Shown: positions 1,412-12,135 of the stretch, piece after piece
Layout of the letters: the number at the start of each line of letters is the position of its first letter
Position numbering within the stretch: position 1 is the stretch's first letter
Assembly (NCBI GenBank): GCA_016195265.1
Contig: JACPZW010000078.1
Location: forward strand, 78-64,077
Direction: 5' to 3'
DNA length: 64,000 nt
Origin: Acidobacteriota bacterium
GTDB taxonomy: Bacteria > Acidobacteriota > Vicinamibacteria > Vicinamibacterales > CAVVIG01
The notes under the pieces: model-generated
Told to the model about the DNA's origin: nothing
The model's database searches: none
What the model saw: only the letters and a program-made list of their open reading frames with translations
Position numbers and translations under genes: made by a program

Positions 1412-2015
1412 ATGGCCGACATTGAGCTCTCCATTCGGATGGCGGCATTTCGATTCCTCGAAGAGCAATCGCGCCTTGCCGGCCAGGACGGCGCGCTTTC
1501 GAGGAAGTTGCTCGAGCGCGGGTTCGTCCACGAAGGTCAGCGCGTCCCTCTGGTCGGTCCGTCAGGCATCTTCAAGCCTCGCGCGCTTCGTTCCATTCCG
1601 TTGATATACGACTCGCCTATTCCGGCAGCGGCTGTATCAGACGGAGTTTCGCGAGCGCGTCGTTCGCGCCTATCAGCATCACTGTGCGGTGTGCCGGCTC
1701 AAACGCGACGAACTGCTCGAGGCCGCGCATATCATGCCTGATGCGGATCCGCTCGGCGTGCCGGCCGTTCCCAACGGCCTCGCGCTGTGCAAGCTTCATC
1801 ATGCCGCCTTCGATCGGTACCTCATTGGAATCACGCCCGACTCCGTTGTCGAAGTGCGGCAAGACGTGCTCGATGAGTCGGACGGCCCGATGTTGATTCA
1901 TGGTCTTCAGGGATTCAACGGCGCACGACTGCTCACGCCGAGTCGAAATGCGTGGAAGCCTGATCGACGACTGCTGGAAGAGCGATATCAGCTCTTTCGG
2001 CGGGCAGCCCGATAA
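1412..2015 (+). pseudogene. HNH endonuclease, internally deleted and frameshifted
   Basis: N-terminus MADIELSIRMAAF...GIFKP in one frame; after ~1604 another frame reads RQRLYQTEFRERVVRAYQHHCAVC...LEAAHI...NGLALCKLHHAAFD. Confidence 0.75.
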
Positions 2016-5621: not shown

Positions 5622-6122
5622 ATGAAACAGTCGCTGTGGTTGACGTTGATCTCGAGCGCAGTCGTCGCCGTGGCGGCCACGGCTCAAACGCCGGACGCCT
5701 CCGACATCGCCGAAGGGCTGAGACTTTATCGGCAGAAGGCCAGTTGCCAGTCGTGCCACGGCTGGGCGGCCGACGGTCGCAAGTCGGACAACCAGATGCC
5801 CGACGGCCCGAACCTGCGGGAAACCAAGCTCGGTCGTGCGGGCCTGGTCATGACGATCAAATGCGGGCGGCTCAACTCGTCGATGCCTGCGTTCGACAAG
5901 TTCGCGTATTCGGACGGCCGGTGTTACGGCAAGACGCAAGCTGATCTGAAAGCGTATCCGACGCGCATGCCCGACCCGCCTTCGACGCTGCAGCCGCGCG
6001 AGATCGAACTGATTGCCGACTTCCTCATAGGGAAGGTCGTCGGCAAGGGTCCGATGGATCACGCCAGGTGCGTCGAATACTGGGGCGCTGACGTCGAAGC
6101 CTGCAGAGAGTTTCCAAAGTAG
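5622..6122 (+). CDS. monohaem cytochrome c
   Basis: signal peptide, CQSCH, GPNL, distal MPAF. Confidence 0.85.
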   Translation: MKQSLWLTLISSAVVAVAATAQTPDASDIAEGLRLYRQKASCQSCHGWAADGRKSDNQMPDGPNLRETKLGRAGLVMTIKCGRLNSSMPAFDKFAYSDGRCYGKTQADLKAYPTRMPDPPSTLQPREIELIADFLIGKVVGKGPMDHARCVEYWGADVEACREFPK

Positions 6123-6191: not shown

Positions 6192-7940
6192 CTAATTCAG
6201 CGCGAACACGAACAGGTAGCTCGCATCCTGCAGCTTGTCGAAGTTCACCGGATGCAGGTGGCGGCCGCCGGCCTGCACGGCGAGATACTGCTTCGGTCCA
6301 ATCGCGTACGTGACGGGTGCGCCTTTGAGCGCAGTGCCGACGTTGAAGCGCCAGAGCTCCTCGAGCGTCTCGTCGTTGTAGGCGACGATCCATCCATCCT
6401 GCAGAGCGGTGAACAGCACGCCGCCGGCCGTGTCCGTCGCCCCCGATCGGATTTCGATGTCGGTGACGGCCTTCGCGATCACCCTGTGCTTGATCGTGTC
6501 GAACGCGGTGACGGAGCCGTAATACAGATCGCTGCTGAACGTGCGCTTCTCGCTCTTCTTTTCGTCGATGCCGCCCTGCGGCGAGAGGAACGCGACGGCC
6601 GCGCCGTTGGTCGAGAAGCATCCCTCGATCCCGACGCCGTAAGCGATGTTCTTGATCGGGTTGTACGCGGTCGGCTGGTGGGCGATGCCGCCGTGCCAGG
6701 TCGGGCACGTGCGCTTCGTGCCGTCGCCGCGCAGCGCCCGCGCCGCCGGGTTGTAGATCTGCACGTCGAGTTTCGGATCGTACTCGAGCGGCATGCCGGT
6801 CTTGGGATTGAGCCCTTTGGTCCAGTTCAGGTCGTTTACGTACTGGGCGCCCTTGATGAATTTTCCGGTCGTGCGATCCAGCGAATAATAGAATCCGTTG
6901 CGCCCGAAGTGGCCGACGACCTTGCGCGTCTGTCCGTCGATCGTCGTGTCGTACAGCATGTGCACGCCGACCTCGTCGTAGTCCCACGAGTCGTTCGGCG
7001 TGTACTGGAAATACCAGGCAAGCTTGCCCGTGTCGACATTCAGCGCAACGACGGAATTCGTATAGAGATTGTCGCCGGGCCGCGCCTGCGGATCGTATTG
7101 CGGGATCGGGTTGCCGGTTCCCCAAAGCGTGAGCCGCGTGGCCGGATCGTACGAGCCGGTCTGCCAGAGGCCGCCGCCGCCCGTCTTCCAGGCGTTGTTG
7201 GTGTCTTTCCACGTCTCGCTGCCCGGCTCGCCCGGCTTCGGCACGGCGTACCACCGCCAGAGCTCCTTGCCGGTCCGCGCATCGAGCGCGGCGATCCAGC
7301 CGCGCGTCTTCCCGTCGCCCGCGCCGTTGGCGACGATGACCTTGCCTTCGGCCGTAATCGGCGCCGCGAAAAACTTCTCCCGGCTGCCGAATTCGTTGGC
7401 GGTGGCCACCTTCTGGTCCCAGACGATTTCGCCGGTGTCCCGGTTGACGGCAATCACGCGGCCGTCGGGAAGGTTGGCGATCACCAGATCCTCCCAGAGG
7501 GCGATCCCGCGGGTGCGCGGAATGTTGCCCGCGTGCTTCACCCCGGGATCGGCCACCCAGACGATCTGGCCCCTGTTCGGATCGCGCACATCGATCTTGT
7601 AGAGCGTTCCCCAGCCGTCGGTCGTGTACATGCGGCCGTTGTCGATGAGCGGATTCACTTCGTTTTCCGGCCCGTTCTGGCCGACGTCCTGCAGACCGCC
7701 GAGCGCCAGGGCCCAGACCATGCGCAGGCTCTTGACGTTGTCCCGGTTGATCTGCGACAGCTTCGAGTAGCGCGTGGACGCGTAGTCGCCGTTCATCATG
7801 AGCCAGTTCTGCGGCTCACTCGGCGCGTTGATCAGCCGATCCTTGTTGACCGTCATCGTGTATTGCGCGGCCAACGTCGCGGCCCCCAACGCGACGATCA
7901 GCACGGCGGGGAGCATGGCGACGGCGACAATCCTGCGCAT
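6192..7940 (-). CDS. PQQ-dependent dehydrogenase, methanol/ethanol-family fold
   Basis: RYSKLSQINRDNV, WGTGNP, TPNDSWDYDE, W-docking repeats; ATG at 7940 with GAGG upstream and a signal peptide. Confidence 0.9.
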   Translation of the reverse strand: MRRIVAVAMLPAVLIVALGAATLAAQYTMTVNKDRLINAPSEPQNWLMMNGDYASTRYSKLSQINRDNVKSLRMVWALALGGLQDVGQNGPENEVNPLIDNGRMYTTDGWGTLYKIDVRDPNRGQIVWVADPGVKHAGNIPRTRGIALWEDLVIANLPDGRVIAVNRDTGEIVWDQKVATANEFGSREKFFAAPITAEGKVIVANGAGDGKTRGWIAALDARTGKELWRWYAVPKPGEPGSETWKDTNNAWKTGGGGLWQTGSYDPATRLTLWGTGNPIPQYDPQARPGDNLYTNSVVALNVDTGKLAWYFQYTPNDSWDYDEVGVHMLYDTTIDGQTRKVVGHFGRNGFYYSLDRTTGKFIKGAQYVNDLNWTKGLNPKTGMPLEYDPKLDVQIYNPAARALRGDGTKRTCPTWHGGIAHQPTAYNPIKNIAYGVGIEGCFSTNGAAVAFLSPQGGIDEKKSEKRTFSSDLYYGSVTAFDTIKHRVIAKAVTDIEIRSGATDTAGGVLFTALQDGWIVAYNDETLEELWRFNVGTALKGAPVTYAIGPKQYLAVQAGGRHLHPVNFDKLQDASYLFVFALN

Positions 7941-8075
7941 ACAGATCCTCCGCGGAAGGCGGCGAGTTTTGGACCCCGGAACTATACGCCTAATCCAGCA
8001 CCAGGCGCGAGGCGCCGGCCTTGTGTCGTACCAGTCCTGCTGGAGGAAAACCGAGGTCGGCGGTCGTGGAGCGCT

Positions 8076-8357
8076 AGAGTTGTGAGCCGGGAGGAATTGC
8101 ACCGGGACGCCGTGGACAAGGATGTGCTCGCCCTCGACGTTGAATTTCCGCGCGCGCGCCCAGACGTAAAACGGCTCGAGCGACACCAACGATGCCTATG
8201 CTGCCTGCGCCATCAGGACAAACACGTCCACGTCGTATGTTCGCGCCGGCTCCGCATAGAAGAGTGCGGCGGTCGCTCCTCCAATCGCATACTCGCGAAC
8301 AAGGCCGGTCGCCTTGAGCTCGTTGAGTTCCCGGAAGACGTCAGCCAGTGTGCGCAC
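8076..8357 (-). pseudogene. nucleotidyltransferase (MNT-like) remnant
   Basis: YAIGGATAALFYAEPARTYDVDVFV (GG...DxD); in-frame TAG at 8196-8198; continues GEHILVHGVPVQFLPAHN then is lost. Confidence 0.7.
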
Positions 8358-8384
8358 GTTCGGATTGTCGTCCGGCTTTCTGGA

Positions 8385-8579
8385 GGGGAAGCCGGAGTCC
8401 GCGGTCCGGTGAGACAACAGACGATGGGACCACATCGCGTCGGCGCGTGAGCGCCTCGGCACAACCTTCGACCGACCACCAAAGACTCACAAAGGAGTCC
8501 GTTTCAAGGACGGTTGGAGTGACCCAGTACGCTTCGTGGGCTTGCGCCCACGTGACCGCGCGCGCCCCCGCGCTTCCCC
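8385..8579 (-). ncRNA. putative ~195-nt structured non-coding RNA
   Basis: 5'/3' closing stem GGGGAAGC/GCUUCCCC, CGGGG/CUCCG, CGCGGUC/GACCGCG; internal hairpins including CGUGGGC-GCAA-GCCCACG (GNRA loop on the minus strand). Confidence 0.6.
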
Positions 8580-8600
8580 ACAATTCGGCCAAATCGATCG

Positions 8601-8897
8601 TCAGGTCAGCTCGCCGAGGGCCGTGTCGTCCTGGCTGTAGCCGTCGATGACGGTCTTCGCGTTGGTGGATTTCATCGCCTGCTCGAGCAACCGGATCTCG
8701 CGCGCAACGCGCGTCACGGATTTGTCGAGCACCTTGACGTCGTACACCGGCTCCCTGACGAGCTCCTTGTCCGCCGTGGCGCCATAGAACCGCCGCTCGC
8801 GATGCGCATTCTCATTGCGCAGGGCGATGAGCTCCTCATGGCGCTTCTTCAGCGTCTTGAGCCACGCCAGTCCTTCGTTGAGAGTGATCTGCGCCAT
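8601..8897 (-). CDS. small coiled-coil protein, DIP1984-like (98 aa)
   Basis: MAQITLNEGLAWLKTLKKRHEEL...YDVKVLDKSVTRVAREIRLLEQAMKSTNAKT; GC-rich third positions; resembles DIP1984-family helices. Confidence 0.7.
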   Translation of the reverse strand: MAQITLNEGLAWLKTLKKRHEELIALRNENAHRERRFYGATADKELVREPVYDVKVLDKSVTRVAREIRLLEQAMKSTNAKTVIDGYSQDDTALGELT

Positions 8898-9006
8898 GCG
8901 ACGACGATGCCATCGTCGAGCGACGAAGATCAAGCGGGAATTCTGGATGAGGGAGCGCCGGAGGAAAGTACGTACATTTCTTTCCTCCGCGTCCTGTACC
9001 TGTGAG

Positions 9007-9103
9007 GCTAATTCTGCGAAGCGCTCGGTGGGCCGATCTCGGGTCCTGTCCGCGAACAGCCCCGTGGTTGTCTTCTTCTCTGCGGTTTCAGCGATTTCTG
9101 CGT
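9007..9103. repeat. composite intergenic repeat block
   Basis: gctaattctgcga (9007-9019), 29-bp copy of 1289-1317 (9034-9062), three 9-nt units tctctgcgg/tttcagcga/tttctgcgt (9077-9103). Confidence 0.65.
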
Positions 9104-9124
9104 TGTACGTCGTCTGTCCTTCAG

Positions 9125-11311
9125 TTACTGGCCTCCCGTCGTGCGCGTCTCCGACGCGGGCAACGCGAACGCAAGGTACTCGCCCGAGTAGTTGCCGCCG
9201 CTTATCGCGACGATGATGTACTGCCGGCCGTCGGCGGAGTATGTCATCGGCGATCCGCTCTGCGGCGCCGGCAACCACACCGCGCCCACCTGATTCCCGT
9301 TCGTCTTATCGTACGCCCTCAGCATCGCCCCGCGTGGATGATCGGCCGTCGTCGTGATCTGTGGGTCGCCGAGAATCACGAGCGTCTTCGTCACCAACTG
9401 TCCGACGCTGCCCTGCTGCCCCGTCTTCGGAATGTTCATGCCGCGCAGCGCGGGATGATTGCGGACGACGTCCGGCGTGTCGCCGTGCGGGACCTGGAAG
9501 ACGAGATCCCCGCGATCGAGATTGATCGCGGAGAGGACGCCGTAGGGTGGCTTGACGAGCGGCAGTCCTTGCACCGTCGTGCCGCCGCCGCCACCACCTC
9601 CAGCCGCCGGCGCAGCTCCTGCCGCCGGCGCGGCGGCCGGTGCGGCTTCCGGCGCGGACGGCGCGATGCCAAGCCGCTGCAGTCGCTGCTGGCTGACGCT
9701 GATCTTCGGCGCCTCGGCTGCGCTGCCGAAACCCGGGCCTTCGTTGATGCGGAACTCGCGTCCCGCGACGCCCGCGACATATCTAATGTCCGAGAATCCC
9801 GCCGGCGGTTCGACGAGGCCGAGCGGCGAGACGCCGGCGTTGGCCGCCGATGCGTAGACCGTGTGCGTTTCCGGATCGTACGAGCCGCCGGGCCAGTTCG
9901 TGCCGCCGCCGAGCGTGCCGATCGTCAAGGCGCCGAGCGGTCCGCCGACACGGCTTACGACCGCGGGCAGGAACATCGGTCCCATGCGGTACTGATGCGC
10001 GACCGTAAGCCCTTGCGCGCGCAGATCCGGCGTGAAGTTGATCAGGTCGTCTTCCGTGATCGCCTGGCGCGCGTAGGCCGGCGGTTTCGTCGGGAACGGC
10101 TGCGTCGGCGACGTCTTCTCGCCGGGAACGTCGGACTGCGGGACGGGTCTTTCTTCGATCGGCCACACCGGCTGACCCGTGATGCGATCGAAGACGTAGA
10201 GGAACGCTTCTTTACTTGGAAGCGCGACGGCCTTGATCGCTTTGCCGTTGACGGTGATGTCCGCGAGGATCGCCCACGACGACAGGTCGTAGTCCCAGAT
10301 CGGATGGTGCGCGACCTGGAAGTGCCACTTGCGCTGGCCCGTTTTCAGATCGACGCAGACGAGCGAGTCGCCGAAGAGATTGTTGCCGGGGCGATGGCCG
10401 CCGTACTGATCGGACGTGGGATCTTCGACCGGCAGATAGACGAGTCCGGCTTCTTCGTCGACCGTGATTTGCGTCCAGACGCCGGTGTTGCCGTTGACGG
10501 CCCACGATTCGTTTTCCCACGTGTCGTTGCCGAACTCGCCCGGGCGCGGGATTGTGTTGAAGGTCCAGAGCAGCTTGCCCGTCTTGACGTCGAACGCGCG
10601 AACGAGGCCTTTCGTGTTGTTGTGCGTGACGACCTGCGTGCCTTCTTTGAAGGAGGAGCCCACGAGGACGACGTCCTTCGCGACCGTTGCCGTCGCGTGC
10701 AACCCGATCTCGCCGGTCTCGAGATCAATTTGCTGTCCCTTGCCGAAGACCGCGCCTTTCTTCAGATCGACGACGCCGCCGTCGCCGAAGCTAGTAATCA
10801 TTGACCCGTTCTTTGCGTTGAGCGCGATGAGCCGATAGCCCGTCGTCACGTAGAGGATACGTTCGTCGCTTTTGCCGTCGGTCCAGTAGGAGACGCCGCG
10901 GCCGGAGAGCTGTCGCGGCGCGATGGCGGCGCGGTTGCCTTCGCGGTAGCTGTGGGACCAGATGAGCTCGCCGGTCTTCCCGTCGAGCGCGACGACGGAG
11001 CGGCGCGTGCCGGCGGTGGTGTAGAGCGTGCCGCGGATGGCAAGCGGCGTGCCTTCGAGTTTGAACTCGGGGCGCGTGCCGAGGTTGTCCGTCTTGAAGC
11101 GCCACGCGACCTCGAGCTTGTTGAAGTTCGAGGCGTCGACCTGCGCGAGCGGCGAGTACTTCGACCCGCGCACGTCCGCGGTGTAGTGGGTCCAGTCGCC
11201 GTTCTTCGTGCTGGGGACACCCGCCTGGCCGCGTGCGCCGGCGGTCCACCAGACGAGGCCCATCGCAAGCGCCGCGACGGCAGGAATCGAGCGTCGAAAC
11301 AGTTTGGACAT
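9125..11311 (-). CDS. PQQ-dependent glucose/quinate-type dehydrogenase, periplasmic
   Basis: HHPIWDYDL, PVWPIEERPVPQSDVPGE..SPTQPFPTKPP, GGTNWPG, KPPYG; GGAG before ATG 11311. Confidence 0.9.
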   Translation of the reverse strand: MSKLFRRSIPAVAALAMGLVWWTAGARGQAGVPSTKNGDWTHYTADVRGSKYSPLAQVDASNFNKLEVAWRFKTDNLGTRPEFKLEGTPLAIRGTLYTTAGTRRSVVALDGKTGELIWSHSYREGNRAAIAPRQLSGRGVSYWTDGKSDERILYVTTGYRLIALNAKNGSMITSFGDGGVVDLKKGAVFGKGQQIDLETGEIGLHATATVAKDVVLVGSSFKEGTQVVTHNNTKGLVRAFDVKTGKLLWTFNTIPRPGEFGNDTWENESWAVNGNTGVWTQITVDEEAGLVYLPVEDPTSDQYGGHRPGNNLFGDSLVCVDLKTGQRKWHFQVAHHPIWDYDLSSWAILADITVNGKAIKAVALPSKEAFLYVFDRITGQPVWPIEERPVPQSDVPGEKTSPTQPFPTKPPAYARQAITEDDLINFTPDLRAQGLTVAHQYRMGPMFLPAVVSRVGGPLGALTIGTLGGGTNWPGGSYDPETHTVYASAANAGVSPLGLVEPPAGFSDIRYVAGVAGREFRINEGPGFGSAAEAPKISVSQQRLQRLGIAPSAPEAAPAAAPAAGAAPAAGGGGGGGTTVQGLPLVKPPYGVLSAINLDRGDLVFQVPHGDTPDVVRNHPALRGMNIPKTGQQGSVGQLVTKTLVILGDPQITTTADHPRGAMLRAYDKTNGNQVGAVWLPAPQSGSPMTYSADGRQYIIVAISGGNYSGEYLAFALPASETRTTGGQ

Positions 11312-11423
11312 CGTGGACTCCATGATGGCAGTGGCCAATTAGGCCGCCGGATGGGCACCGTTATACACCCAGGTCCACCGAGTGGGGTCACAGTTTTTCC
11401 CCTCTTGAGTGATATTCGGAGGC

Positions 11424-11576
11424 TTACGAAGCCGCCCACAACTCGGACAAAGCCTCAGCCTGTTCGAGGACTGTTTGAGTCGCCTTCTCTTGCTTGTCCG
11501 GCGGGTAGCCGTACTTCCGGAGAATCCGCTTAACGATCACTCGAAGCTGCGCGCGGACATTTTCGCGGACAGTCCA
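11424..11576 (-). pseudogene. hsdR: type I restriction enzyme R subunit, extreme C-terminal fragment (DUF3387-like)
   Basis: [41 protein letters not shown]. Confidence 0.85.
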
Positions 11577-11625
11577 GAGGCGTTCTGCTCGGCCTACGGA
11601 ATCCGGTGAGGCGCCTTCGGTTCGC

Positions 11626-12135
11626 AGCTTCACGCCGGAAGAGCTCCTCGGTCCTCTGAACCCGCTGGAACCCCTTCACGCTCCGAAACAATTATTTGCC
11701 GCGGGGCACGCTGAATGGCTGTGGGAGCGACCGCGAGTATCCATCGTCGGTTTCCTGAAGCCTTCATCGGACGGACTGAAGCGAGCCGCCAAGCTCGCAC
11801 GCGTCCTCACGGAGCATGGCGCGCTGGTCGTGAGTGGCCTTGCAGAGCGTATCGACGCGTCCGCTCACATCACGACTCTGGAGGCCGGCGGACGAACGAT
11901 TGCCGTGATCGGAACTCCGTTGTCGGAGGCCTACCCGACGAAGCATCGCAGTCTTCAGGACCGCGGGAGCACCTCGTCGTCTCGCAGTTTCCGGAAGGTC
12001 ATCCGACGACGCGCCGAAGTTTCCCGAGGCGCAATCGCACGATGGCGTTGGTATCCGATGCGTCCGTGATTGTCGAAGCGGGCGAAGGCAGCGGCAGTCC
12101 CTCGCAAGAATGGGAAGCGTTGCGTCGACCTCATC
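11626..12135 (+). pseudogene. dprA: DprA/Smf-like protein, frameshifted and truncated
   Basis: RVSIVG, VVSGLAERIDASAH, GGRTIAVIGTPL; frameshift near 11962; then VVSQFP, FPRRNRTMAL..VIVEAGEGSG; no start codon. Confidence 0.8.

Follow-up and report, generated by a model that had tools for sequence, protein, structure and literature searches.

A 98-amino-acid protein gene and the structured RNA encoded behind it look like a conserved protein-RNA unit of soil bacteria and large phages

The window analysed here is a 64,000-nucleotide (nt) stretch of an Acidobacteriota contig (JACPZW010000078.1), and our subject is a minus-strand gene in it for a small protein of 98 amino acids (aa), together with the RNA encoded directly behind that gene. 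The two look like a conserved protein-RNA unit whose RNA belongs to a family not yet catalogued. Judged by comparison with relatives, the fold of this RNA is under purifying selection, the RNA with its dedicated partner gene is a real feature and a new RNA family, and the unit is found again both in soil bacteria and in uncultivated large phages. As to what the unit does, we cautiously lean towards the view that the RNA is stable and acts in trans, with the protein as its binding partner, the two together forming a ribonucleoprotein. The cassette had been proposed from the letters of the window as a compact two-part module, and its coordinates, its strand and the 21-nt spacing between the stop codon of the gene (8601-8603) and the first G of the RNA (8579) are as that original prediction gave them (Table 1).

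Table 1. Coordinates of the cassette, the elements of its RNA and two flanking features in the window; "cells" are alignment cells, and changes are those counted among relatives.
Feature	Position	Strand	Remarks
98-aa helical-hairpin protein gene	8601-8897	-	short DUF6847/DIP1984-like family (weak likeness); ORF prediction and AlphaFold
Structured RNA	8381-8579	-	199 nt; model R1 122.4 bits, E 2.8e-29, full length
P1 5' strand, closing stem	8565-8579	-	pairs with 8385-8397; 94.2% of cells paired; 12/15 pairs changed on both sides
P2 5' strand CGCGGUC	8554-8560	-	pairs with GACCGCG, 8400-8406; 98.3% paired; 6/7 changed on both sides
P3 hairpin GUGGGC-GCAA-GCCCAC	8536-8551	-	6/6 pairs changed on both sides; length variable among relatives
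P4 domain enclosing P5	8484-8532	-	82.1% paired; 10/10 pairs changed on both sides
P5 hairpin CCGU-CCUUGAA-ACGG	8499-8513	-	98.9% paired; 4/4 covary
P6 GC-CGA-GGCGC-UCAC-GCGCC-GAC-GC	8437-8460	-	hairpin with 3x3 internal loop (model helices 6 and 7)
P7 hairpin and G/U-rich tail ...GUCUGUUGUCUCACC	8408-8436	-	weak support; tail stops just before P2 3' strand
Upstream control region	8902-8933	-	TTGATC 8928-8933 (TTGACA in relatives), then perfect palindrome CGACGATGGCATCGTCG 8902-8918
Nucleotidyltransferase-like remnant	8010-8380	-	DUF2204 E 0.08-0.1 only; outside conserved cassette

Conservation of the RNA

When GTDB species genomes were scanned with the protein, 33 loci emerged, 30 of them labelled as Acidobacteriota or Vicinamibacterales metagenome-assembled genomes (MAGs), the exceptions being two contigs of a Bifidobacteriaceae-labelled MAG and one of a Chloroflexota-labelled MAG. 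The RNA lies directly downstream in 21 of the 22 Vicinamibacterales loci that have a full-length gene, as befits the two-part module that had been proposed; in one locus (L024) it has undergone an internal deletion between two CTCGTTGAT repeats. Among 41 related genomes searched at the DNA level, two gave matches of 74% identity, which ran through the gene and ended at the 3' end of the RNA, and a third genome had an internal deletion. Across loci the similarity starts at (U/A)UGGGG and stops at CCCCUCCA, beyond which the sequences diverge completely and the contexts differ; homology between loci likewise ends right after ...CCCCUCCAG.

The claim that no credible open reading frame (ORF) covers the region needs qualification in that ORFs of 83 aa (minus strand) and 100 aa (plus strand) overlap it. 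Its substance stands: relatives differ by indels of 1, 2, 4 and 6 nt and by stops and, as these indels are not multiples of three, no reading frame is conserved, so that we rejected a coding region as an explanation for the conservation.

From a plain MAFFT alignment of 21 sequences, RNAalifold retrieved P1, P2, P3 and the GNRA hairpin, with compensatory changes in 10 of 34 pairs. A covariance model, R1, was built from 12 Vicinamibacterales sequences (~60% GC) with a structure of seven elements, P1-P7, and 53 pairs; the 28 matches aligned with it, 26 of them distinct, served for the covariation counts. Standard pairs fill 91.8% of cells, compared with 39.7-50.2% when partners are slid by 1-3 columns, and 41 of the 53 pairs are changed on both sides, compared with 13-20 when slid, although such counts overstate independence because related sequences went into a model-fitted alignment. 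The covariation score is 0.410 (slid, 0.066-0.100; shuffled, 0.199), a value that 0 of 500 shuffles reached. Both the slid controls and the MAFFT-based result agree with the model-fitted covariation, by which P1-P5 are strongly supported. The comparison downstream of homologous genes that had been suggested with the original prediction thus finds a conserved, covarying structure. The predicted placement of the RNA on the strand of the gene was also borne out, R1 scoring 251 bits forward and 17 bits in reverse on one locus (L011).

The same prediction had named a known Rfam family and a dispersed genomic repeat as outcomes to be checked. No family of Rfam 15 matched at its gathering threshold anywhere in the window, none matched at E <= 10 over 8000-9200, where the RNA lies, and none matched the RNAs of six distant loci at E <= 1; the comparison covers transfer RNA (tRNA), transfer-messenger RNA (tmRNA), 6S, YrlA, GOLLD, ROOL and Acido-1. 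A dispersed repeat was rejected because the RNA is present in a single copy in the source genome (G000), by DNA search and by the covariance model alike.

Structure of the RNA

The RNA, which begins GGGGAAG and ends CUUCCCC-UCCA, is predicted to fold as a rod-like closing stem (P1 and P2) around P3, a P4/P5 domain, a GNRA-capped P6 and a G/U-rich 3' segment. The three-part end-to-end stem that had been drawn for the window is real and conserved, P1 being composed of GGGGAAG(C)/(G)CUUCCCC and CGGGG/CUCCG, with P2 continuing it and pairs in both changed on both sides (Table 1). The hairpins drawn inside this stem fared variously. CGUGGGC-GCAA-GCCCACG, our P3, is backed by changes on both sides of all its counted pairs, and GGCGC-UCAC-GCGCC was found again within P6, which is conserved with little variation and has a GNRA loop in most relatives. 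CGAUG-UGGUCC-CAUCG, the hairpin of P7, is present, with weak comparative support (70.5% of cells paired), and GACUC-CUUUGU-GAGUC is not conserved, its place being taken by P5.

P5 is the clearest helix of the RNA. Its 7-nt loop, of the form C(U/C)UNNAA, resembles an anticodon loop in shape, and the stem closing it reads CCGU/ACGG in some copies and UCCA/UGGA or GUCC/GGAC in others. P4, which encloses it, is well paired in relatives (CAUCGAUGAG/CUCGUUGAUG), and the window copy is imperfect, with mismatches. In relatives the G/U-rich tail region has 2-5 UUG(A/G)UUGUU-like repeats, and bacterial and phage copies alike keep its YACC end. An extra long-range GGUG/CACC helix was inspected and found unsupported. 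In RNAs of the main group (e.g. L011:3317-3522), CUCGUUGAU is present twice, as the 3' strand of P4 and again just before the 3' tail; the 5' strand of P4 can pair with either of them, so that an alternative fold is possible. In L024 it is the segment between the two CUCGUUGAU copies that is deleted.

The 98-aa protein

The protein has 544 close clusters; the 120 matches listed are 79-100% identical to it and have no Pfam domain, and the named sources among these 120 clusters are all 'hypothetical protein'. A profile search of 1.84 billion representatives gave 293 matches, many of them proteins of ~98 aa at 36-55% identity, in whose alignment the basic residues K14, R19, R27 and K76 are near-invariant. 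AlphaFold2 with that alignment (pLDDT 82.6) gives a helix at residues 6-28, a beta hairpin at 32-50 and a second helix at 54-79, and the protein is thus confidently predicted to be a helical hairpin with a beta hairpin at its tip.

It had been suggested that the protein resembles part of a DIP1984/DUF6847-family protein. Weak signals of this kind are indeed present in Pfam, NCBIfam, the structure 3kdq and the ESM Atlas, but the profile scores stay below the curated cut-offs: Pfam DUF6847 (PF20935) scores 19.4 bits (E 1.1e-3; cut-off 27) and NCBIfam DIP1984 (NF038048) 19 bits (E 1.2e-3; cut-off 70), and both matches cover only the C-terminal half of the profile (positions 65-139 of 141). A genome-wide search of G000 for the DUF6847/DIP1984 family gave no match. 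In Foldseek the Corynebacterium diphtheriae chain 3kdq_C has the best TM-score among the matches listed, 0.63 over 82 columns, but with an E-value of 5 and at rank 47; by sequence, no solved structure came below E 0.8. The nearest ESM-Atlas clusters are of 98-105 aa and 67-100% viral, with DUF6847 in 20-60% of members (PF20935 in 20% and 60% of members of the neighbours of 100-105 aa). We treat the protein, weakly, as a putative short phage-type relative of DUF6847 that scores below the curated thresholds. In the literature library searched (PMC10889530 included), we found no function for DUF6847/DIP1984 (PF20935, NF038048, 3KDQ) and only a mention as an annotation.

Bacterial loci and their downstream genes

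By its distribution the cassette is rare, patchy and located in variable islands. The protein occurs in 3 of 401 sampled Acidobacteriota genomes and the RNA in 7 of 151 genomes of the order Vicinamibacterales, one copy each, and in one of these seven (L064) the RNA is reduced to its 3' half, which is fused to an unrelated gene. Other copies have decayed by deletions that removed the gene's 3' part together with the beginning of the RNA (L005/L028, L033 and L038) or by frameshift or truncation (L035-L040, P0192 and P0228). PIN-like and other small-gene pairs are found in the islands, as read from translations. The distance from the stop codon of the protein gene to the start of the RNA is 15-30 nt in most loci; in L010 and L027 an insertion of 45-55 nt with a GC-rich hairpin stands between the two, which is a hint that the RNA need not be a simple 3' untranslated region (3' UTR).

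Apart from one gene, we found no conserved neighbours in the bacterial loci. This gene, which directly follows the RNA in 15 of ~35 Vicinamibacterales loci, encodes an ERCC4-HhH nuclease of ~230 aa (L003-L038; e.g. L004:2023-2730). The protein is Hef/XPF-like and belongs to the XPF/Mus81/Hef (ERCC4) family, with matches to PF02732 (E 7e-21), HHH_5 (E 3e-14) and the Hef nuclease C-terminal region (E 1.7e-50), and its catalytic motif GDY...ERKT.ADF is invariant in 7 of 7 aligned sequences. Where an ERCC4 ATG is nearby, it stands ~2-20 nt after the CCA of the RNA and has no Shine-Dalgarno sequence of its own. Across all loci, those of phages included, other downstream genes are unrelated (the nucleotidyltransferase remnant, TPM, vWA and others), and in some bacterial loci PIN-like and other small-gene pairs occupy this place.

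Could the RNA be an inhibitor, sensor or guide of a neighbouring nuclease, be it ERCC4-HhH or the HNH protein encoded just upstream of the cassette in the phage locus L052, and thus part of a defence or toxin-antitoxin-like system? Such a role would suit the 15 loci in which an ERCC4-HhH gene with intact GDY...ERK follows the RNA, the small-gene pairs of the islands, the patchy distribution and the frequent decay. We nonetheless consider it very unlikely. The window and most phage loci have no nuclease beside the cassette, no obviously hypervariable, guide-like segment was seen in the RNA, and ERCC4 is intact in L005 and L028, where the protein gene and the RNA are largely deleted, so that neither RNA nor protein is likely to be an essential antidote to the nuclease. 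In addition, no family of PADLOC-DB 2.0 matched at E <= 0.1 when the small protein, two ERCC4 proteins and the nucleotidyltransferase-like fragment were compared with it. Of the mobile or defence-related character suggested for the module, it is mobility that fits, in view of the phage origin discussed below, the variable islands and the decayed copies, whereas defence found no match.

Phage loci

Distant relatives of the protein, at 36-60% identity, came from metagenomes (L044-L050) and from IMG/VR, the latter amounting to eight distinct viral contigs of 6-317 kb. In every one of the eight viral contigs, and in one metagenome locus, R1 has a match behind the gene and on its strand, with 39.8 bits in L049, 30.9 in L051, 29.0 in L054, 22.3 in L056, 21.2 in L052, 19.4 in L071, 19.3 in L055/L057 and 17.3 in L068 (the searches are small and their E-values rough); all other matches in these searches were at or below 11.5 bits. 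The contig of L048 stops too early for its RNA to be judged. Bacterial and phage copies have in common the P1/P2 rod, a (C)UAG junction before P3, (C)GA(U/A)AAA after P3, P5 with its C(U/C)UNNAA loop, and several UUG(A/G)UUGUU-like units in the G/U-rich 3' region, with the YACC end just before the 3' strand of P2. On this comparison, the linkage of protein and RNA survives deep divergence of the protein as well as transfer between bacteria and phages. A tblastn search with three distant relatives against GenBank phages, and with one against plasmids, gave no match.

The genes around the phage copies include HNH, TPM, vWA/phrog_7371, metallophosphatase and cpYpsA, and the neighbour in L044 has a strong PHROG match. 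In two otherwise unrelated loci a vWA-type protein is encoded after the cassette and just upstream of a tRNA gene (L044:3374-3994, phrog_7371 E 2e-57; L055:3739-4371, a weak Pfam VWA match of E 5e-4, below cut-off). With the viral contigs, the PHROG neighbour in L044 and the viral Atlas clusters taken together, the best reading is that the cassette is phage-derived.

The position of the RNA relative to the gene bears on how it might act. The two are within ~30 nt of each other, counted from the stop codon, in six of the eight viral contigs and in L049, whereas the distance is ~240 nt in L055/L057 and 1.1 kb in L056, where another ORF and a tRNA gene intervene; such separation argues for a trans-acting rather than a purely cis-acting RNA. 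It has to be weighed against the possibility that the RNA is a cis-acting intergenic or 3'-UTR element that governs the stability, processing or translation of flanking genes, with the small protein as regulator, a possibility we hold to be unlikely, as we do the variant in which the RNA occludes the downstream start codon or, after cleavage, exposes it. A cis role would explain why the ERCC4 start codon, lacking a Shine-Dalgarno sequence, abuts the closing stem at ...CCCCUCCA and why the decayed copies L005/L028, L033, L038 and L064 retain the 3' end of the RNA beside the downstream gene, and the short distance between protein stop and RNA start in most loci would suit it. It would not explain the separated phage arrangements. 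Moreover, the downstream genes are unrelated from locus to locus, those of phages have their own Shine-Dalgarno sequence 15-30 nt after the RNA, and a multi-helix RNA of 200 nt is large for this purpose.

tRNA genes lie within 3 kb of the cassette in L044, L052, L055/57 and L056, and two of the host phages have 34 and 62 tRNA matches, the cassette standing at the edge of the tRNA array in both. Within the tRNA cluster of the 179-kb viral contig L052, ~1.5 kb upstream of the cassette, we also noted two sub-threshold YrlA matches (1557-1777, plus strand; 36.8 and 31.2 bits, gathering score 69), which may be tRNA-like elements. Occurrence in or beside the tRNA clusters of tRNA-rich phages invites the idea that the RNA is itself a tRNA- or tmRNA-like molecule related to translation, carried by phages in their tRNA arrays and processed by tRNA enzymes, and that it serves as a decoy or substrate in tRNA conflicts. 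The 7-bp GGGGAAG/CUUCCCC with U-CCA, at which conservation ends in Vicinamibacterales copies, would agree with this, as would the C-U-NNN-A-A form of the P5 loop on a stem of 4-5 bp. We regard it as quite unlikely all the same, since the tRNA, tmRNA and YrlA models of Rfam miss the RNA, as does ARAGORN, which found the neighbouring tRNAs and neither a tRNA nor a tmRNA on the RNA. A T-arm and a G3:U70 pair are also absent, P1 continues as a rod of 15 bp, and in distant copies the 3' tail is UAUUCA, AUUCA, AUUUA or GAAC, not CCA.

Proposed function of the unit

The reading that we cautiously favour, a trans-acting RNA with the small protein as its binding partner, would make the cassette a self-contained element of phage origin, comprising a promoter with a palindromic operator, the gene for the 98-aa protein and then the gene for an RNA of ~200 nt. 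The RNA would be released as a stable molecule that acts in trans, and the protein would bind it, most plausibly at either the P4/P5 domain or the G/U-rich repeats, in the way that some tRNA synthetases bind tRNA with helical-hairpin arms. The particle so formed may serve in conflict between phage and host, or in processes related to tRNA or translation. Copies of the cassette in Vicinamibacterales lie in variable islands, are often fused to the ERCC4-HhH gene and frequently decay.

Besides the relatedness of the aligned sequences, several observations weigh against this reading. The minimum free energy of the window RNA is -95.7 kcal/mol, compared with a mean of -91.2 for dinucleotide shuffles (z -0.95), and because the DNA is GC-rich and the fold no better than its shuffles, the drawing alone is no evidence for an RNA. 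The R1 scores of the phage copies are weak in absolute terms (17-40 bits). In L044, L047 and L050 an RNA of 160-230 nt with a terminal stem is visible by eye and with RNAfold, without a match to R1, and in L025 an intact gene is not followed by the RNA. Finally, Foldseek gave no significant fold match for the protein, in which we recognised no RNA-binding domain.

A more speculative possibility, which we put forward tentatively, is that the short DUF6847-type protein and its RNA represent an unrecognised class of ribonucleoprotein from large, tRNA-rich phages, which would manipulate host translation or blunt defences that target tRNA, and which would have been captured by Vicinamibacterales and repeatedly coupled there to the ERCC4-HhH nuclease, possibly as an RNA-sensing or RNA-regulated nuclease system. 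Equally tentatively, the RNA of such a class might be pictured as a molecule borne on tRNA arrays, with an acceptor-like end, a mimic of an anticodon loop, a platform of G/U-rich repeats and a helical-hairpin chaperone.

Structured RNAs of ~200 nt with strong covariation and no catalogued family are, to our knowledge, now rare finds, and most orphan classes that we know of, such as GOLLD, ROOL and raiA, have no protein partner. The dedicated, highly conserved partner gene of the RNA described here therefore offers a direct experimental handle. The finding would give DUF6847-type proteins a first functional context, would place a further component in the tRNA islands of huge phages, which are little understood, and points to a link with an ERCC4 nuclease in Acidobacteriota.

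Upstream control region and context in the window

Copies from Vicinamibacterales share, upstream of the gene, TTGACAA and a perfect 10+10 palindrome, GACGACGATG(C/G)CATCGTCGTC, followed by a variable spacer and, as a rule, a GAAGG(T)GG-like Shine-Dalgarno sequence. The palindrome lies just 3' of the TTGACA-like hexamer in the window and in L003-L039, and the element is absent from the phage loci compared. A scan of the upstream region for a consensus sigma-70 promoter found no site. From its position, the palindrome is likely to be an operator over the -10 region, and the window version, GACGACGATGSCATCGTCGTC, is a candidate operator element upstream of the small-protein gene. We also noted that the core of the palindrome, CGATG/CATCG, recurs in the RNA helices P4 and P7.

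The lack of a Shine-Dalgarno sequence, together with TTGATC-N18-CATCGT ending 6 nt before the ATG, had been taken to suggest a leaderless transcript. This holds for the window copy only, which has TTGATC, has lost spacer and Shine-Dalgarno sequence, and has its ATG directly after the palindrome, whereas all 28 other Vicinamibacterales loci compared keep a leader of 20-45 nt after the palindrome, mostly with a GAAGG(T)GG-like Shine-Dalgarno sequence. The leaderless feature is a peculiarity, possibly a defect, of the window copy that reflects deletion of the leader, and the inference of a leaderless transcript was therefore overstated.

In the window the cassette is inserted between two genes for pyrroloquinoline quinone (PQQ)-dependent alcohol/glucose dehydrogenases (6195-7934 and 9128-11338, both minus strand), beside which a c-type cytochrome gene is found (5622-6119, plus strand). 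The nucleotidyltransferase-like pseudogene occupies the place that the ERCC4-HhH gene has in 15 other bacterial loci; it has an in-frame TAG (8196-8198), lacks a start of its own and reads in frame into the following PQQ-dehydrogenase ORF. Gene debris lies ~2.5 kb from the cassette, consisting of a 69-aa C-terminal fragment of a type I restriction R subunit (11427-11633, minus strand; T1RH-like_C, E 8e-20) and a 79-aa DprA fragment (11830-12066, plus strand; E 6e-11).

Comparison with known systems

Neither the RNA nor its pairing with a DUF6847-type protein is covered by any Rfam family, by a PADLOC or PHROG function, by a solved homologue whose function is known or by a paper in the library searched. 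Two known arrangements were considered and rejected. Retron msr-msd RNAs have a terminal stem formed from both ends, (C)UAG just inside it and a hairpin-rich body, and the RNA described here is likewise end-paired, with a conserved (C)UAG inside its stem and a body rich in hairpins; RVT_1, however, was found in 0 of 5 viral records (93-100% complete) and was detected in control genomes, and no reverse transcriptase was noticed among the ORFs read beside the bacterial loci. For a type III toxin-antitoxin system, the RNA lies downstream of the gene, has a single multi-helix fold and only short G/U-rich motifs, and the protein has no ToxN-like match.

The likeness of the protein to DIP1984/DUF6847 (PDB 3KDQ) consists of weak profile matches, a TM-score of 0.63 at a non-significant E of 5, and related short viral clusters that contain the Pfam family, but the protein is of ~98 aa rather than ~150 aa and scores below both cut-offs. 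GOLLD, ROOL and the small stable RNAs of the T4 tRNA cluster are structured RNAs of unknown function that are carried by phages, often near tRNA genes. The present RNA is like GOLLD and ROOL in being phage-carried, structured and close to tRNA genes, but those are 3-4 times larger, lack a dedicated protein partner and are catalogued in Rfam, where the present RNA has no match.

In the SmpB/tmRNA system a small dedicated protein serves an RNA with a GGGG start, an acceptor-like stem and NCCA, and some large phages encode it among their tRNA genes. The pairing of a small protein with an RNA that has the same start, stem and end is a likeness to be considered, but our RNA has no T-arm, G3:U70, tag reading frame or pseudoknots, its CCA is not conserved in distant copies, and the protein is unrelated to SmpB. 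Lastly, Ro60 (Rsr) has as its partners Y RNA and YrlA, RNAs of 100-200 nt with their ends paired in a long stem and with tRNA-like features, which are encoded beside the partner gene and are also found in phages. Our protein is a 98-aa helical hairpin and not a TROVE/vWA ring, and the YrlA model of Rfam does not match the RNA, but here too an end-paired, structured RNA is encoded beside a protein gene, in phages as well as in bacteria.

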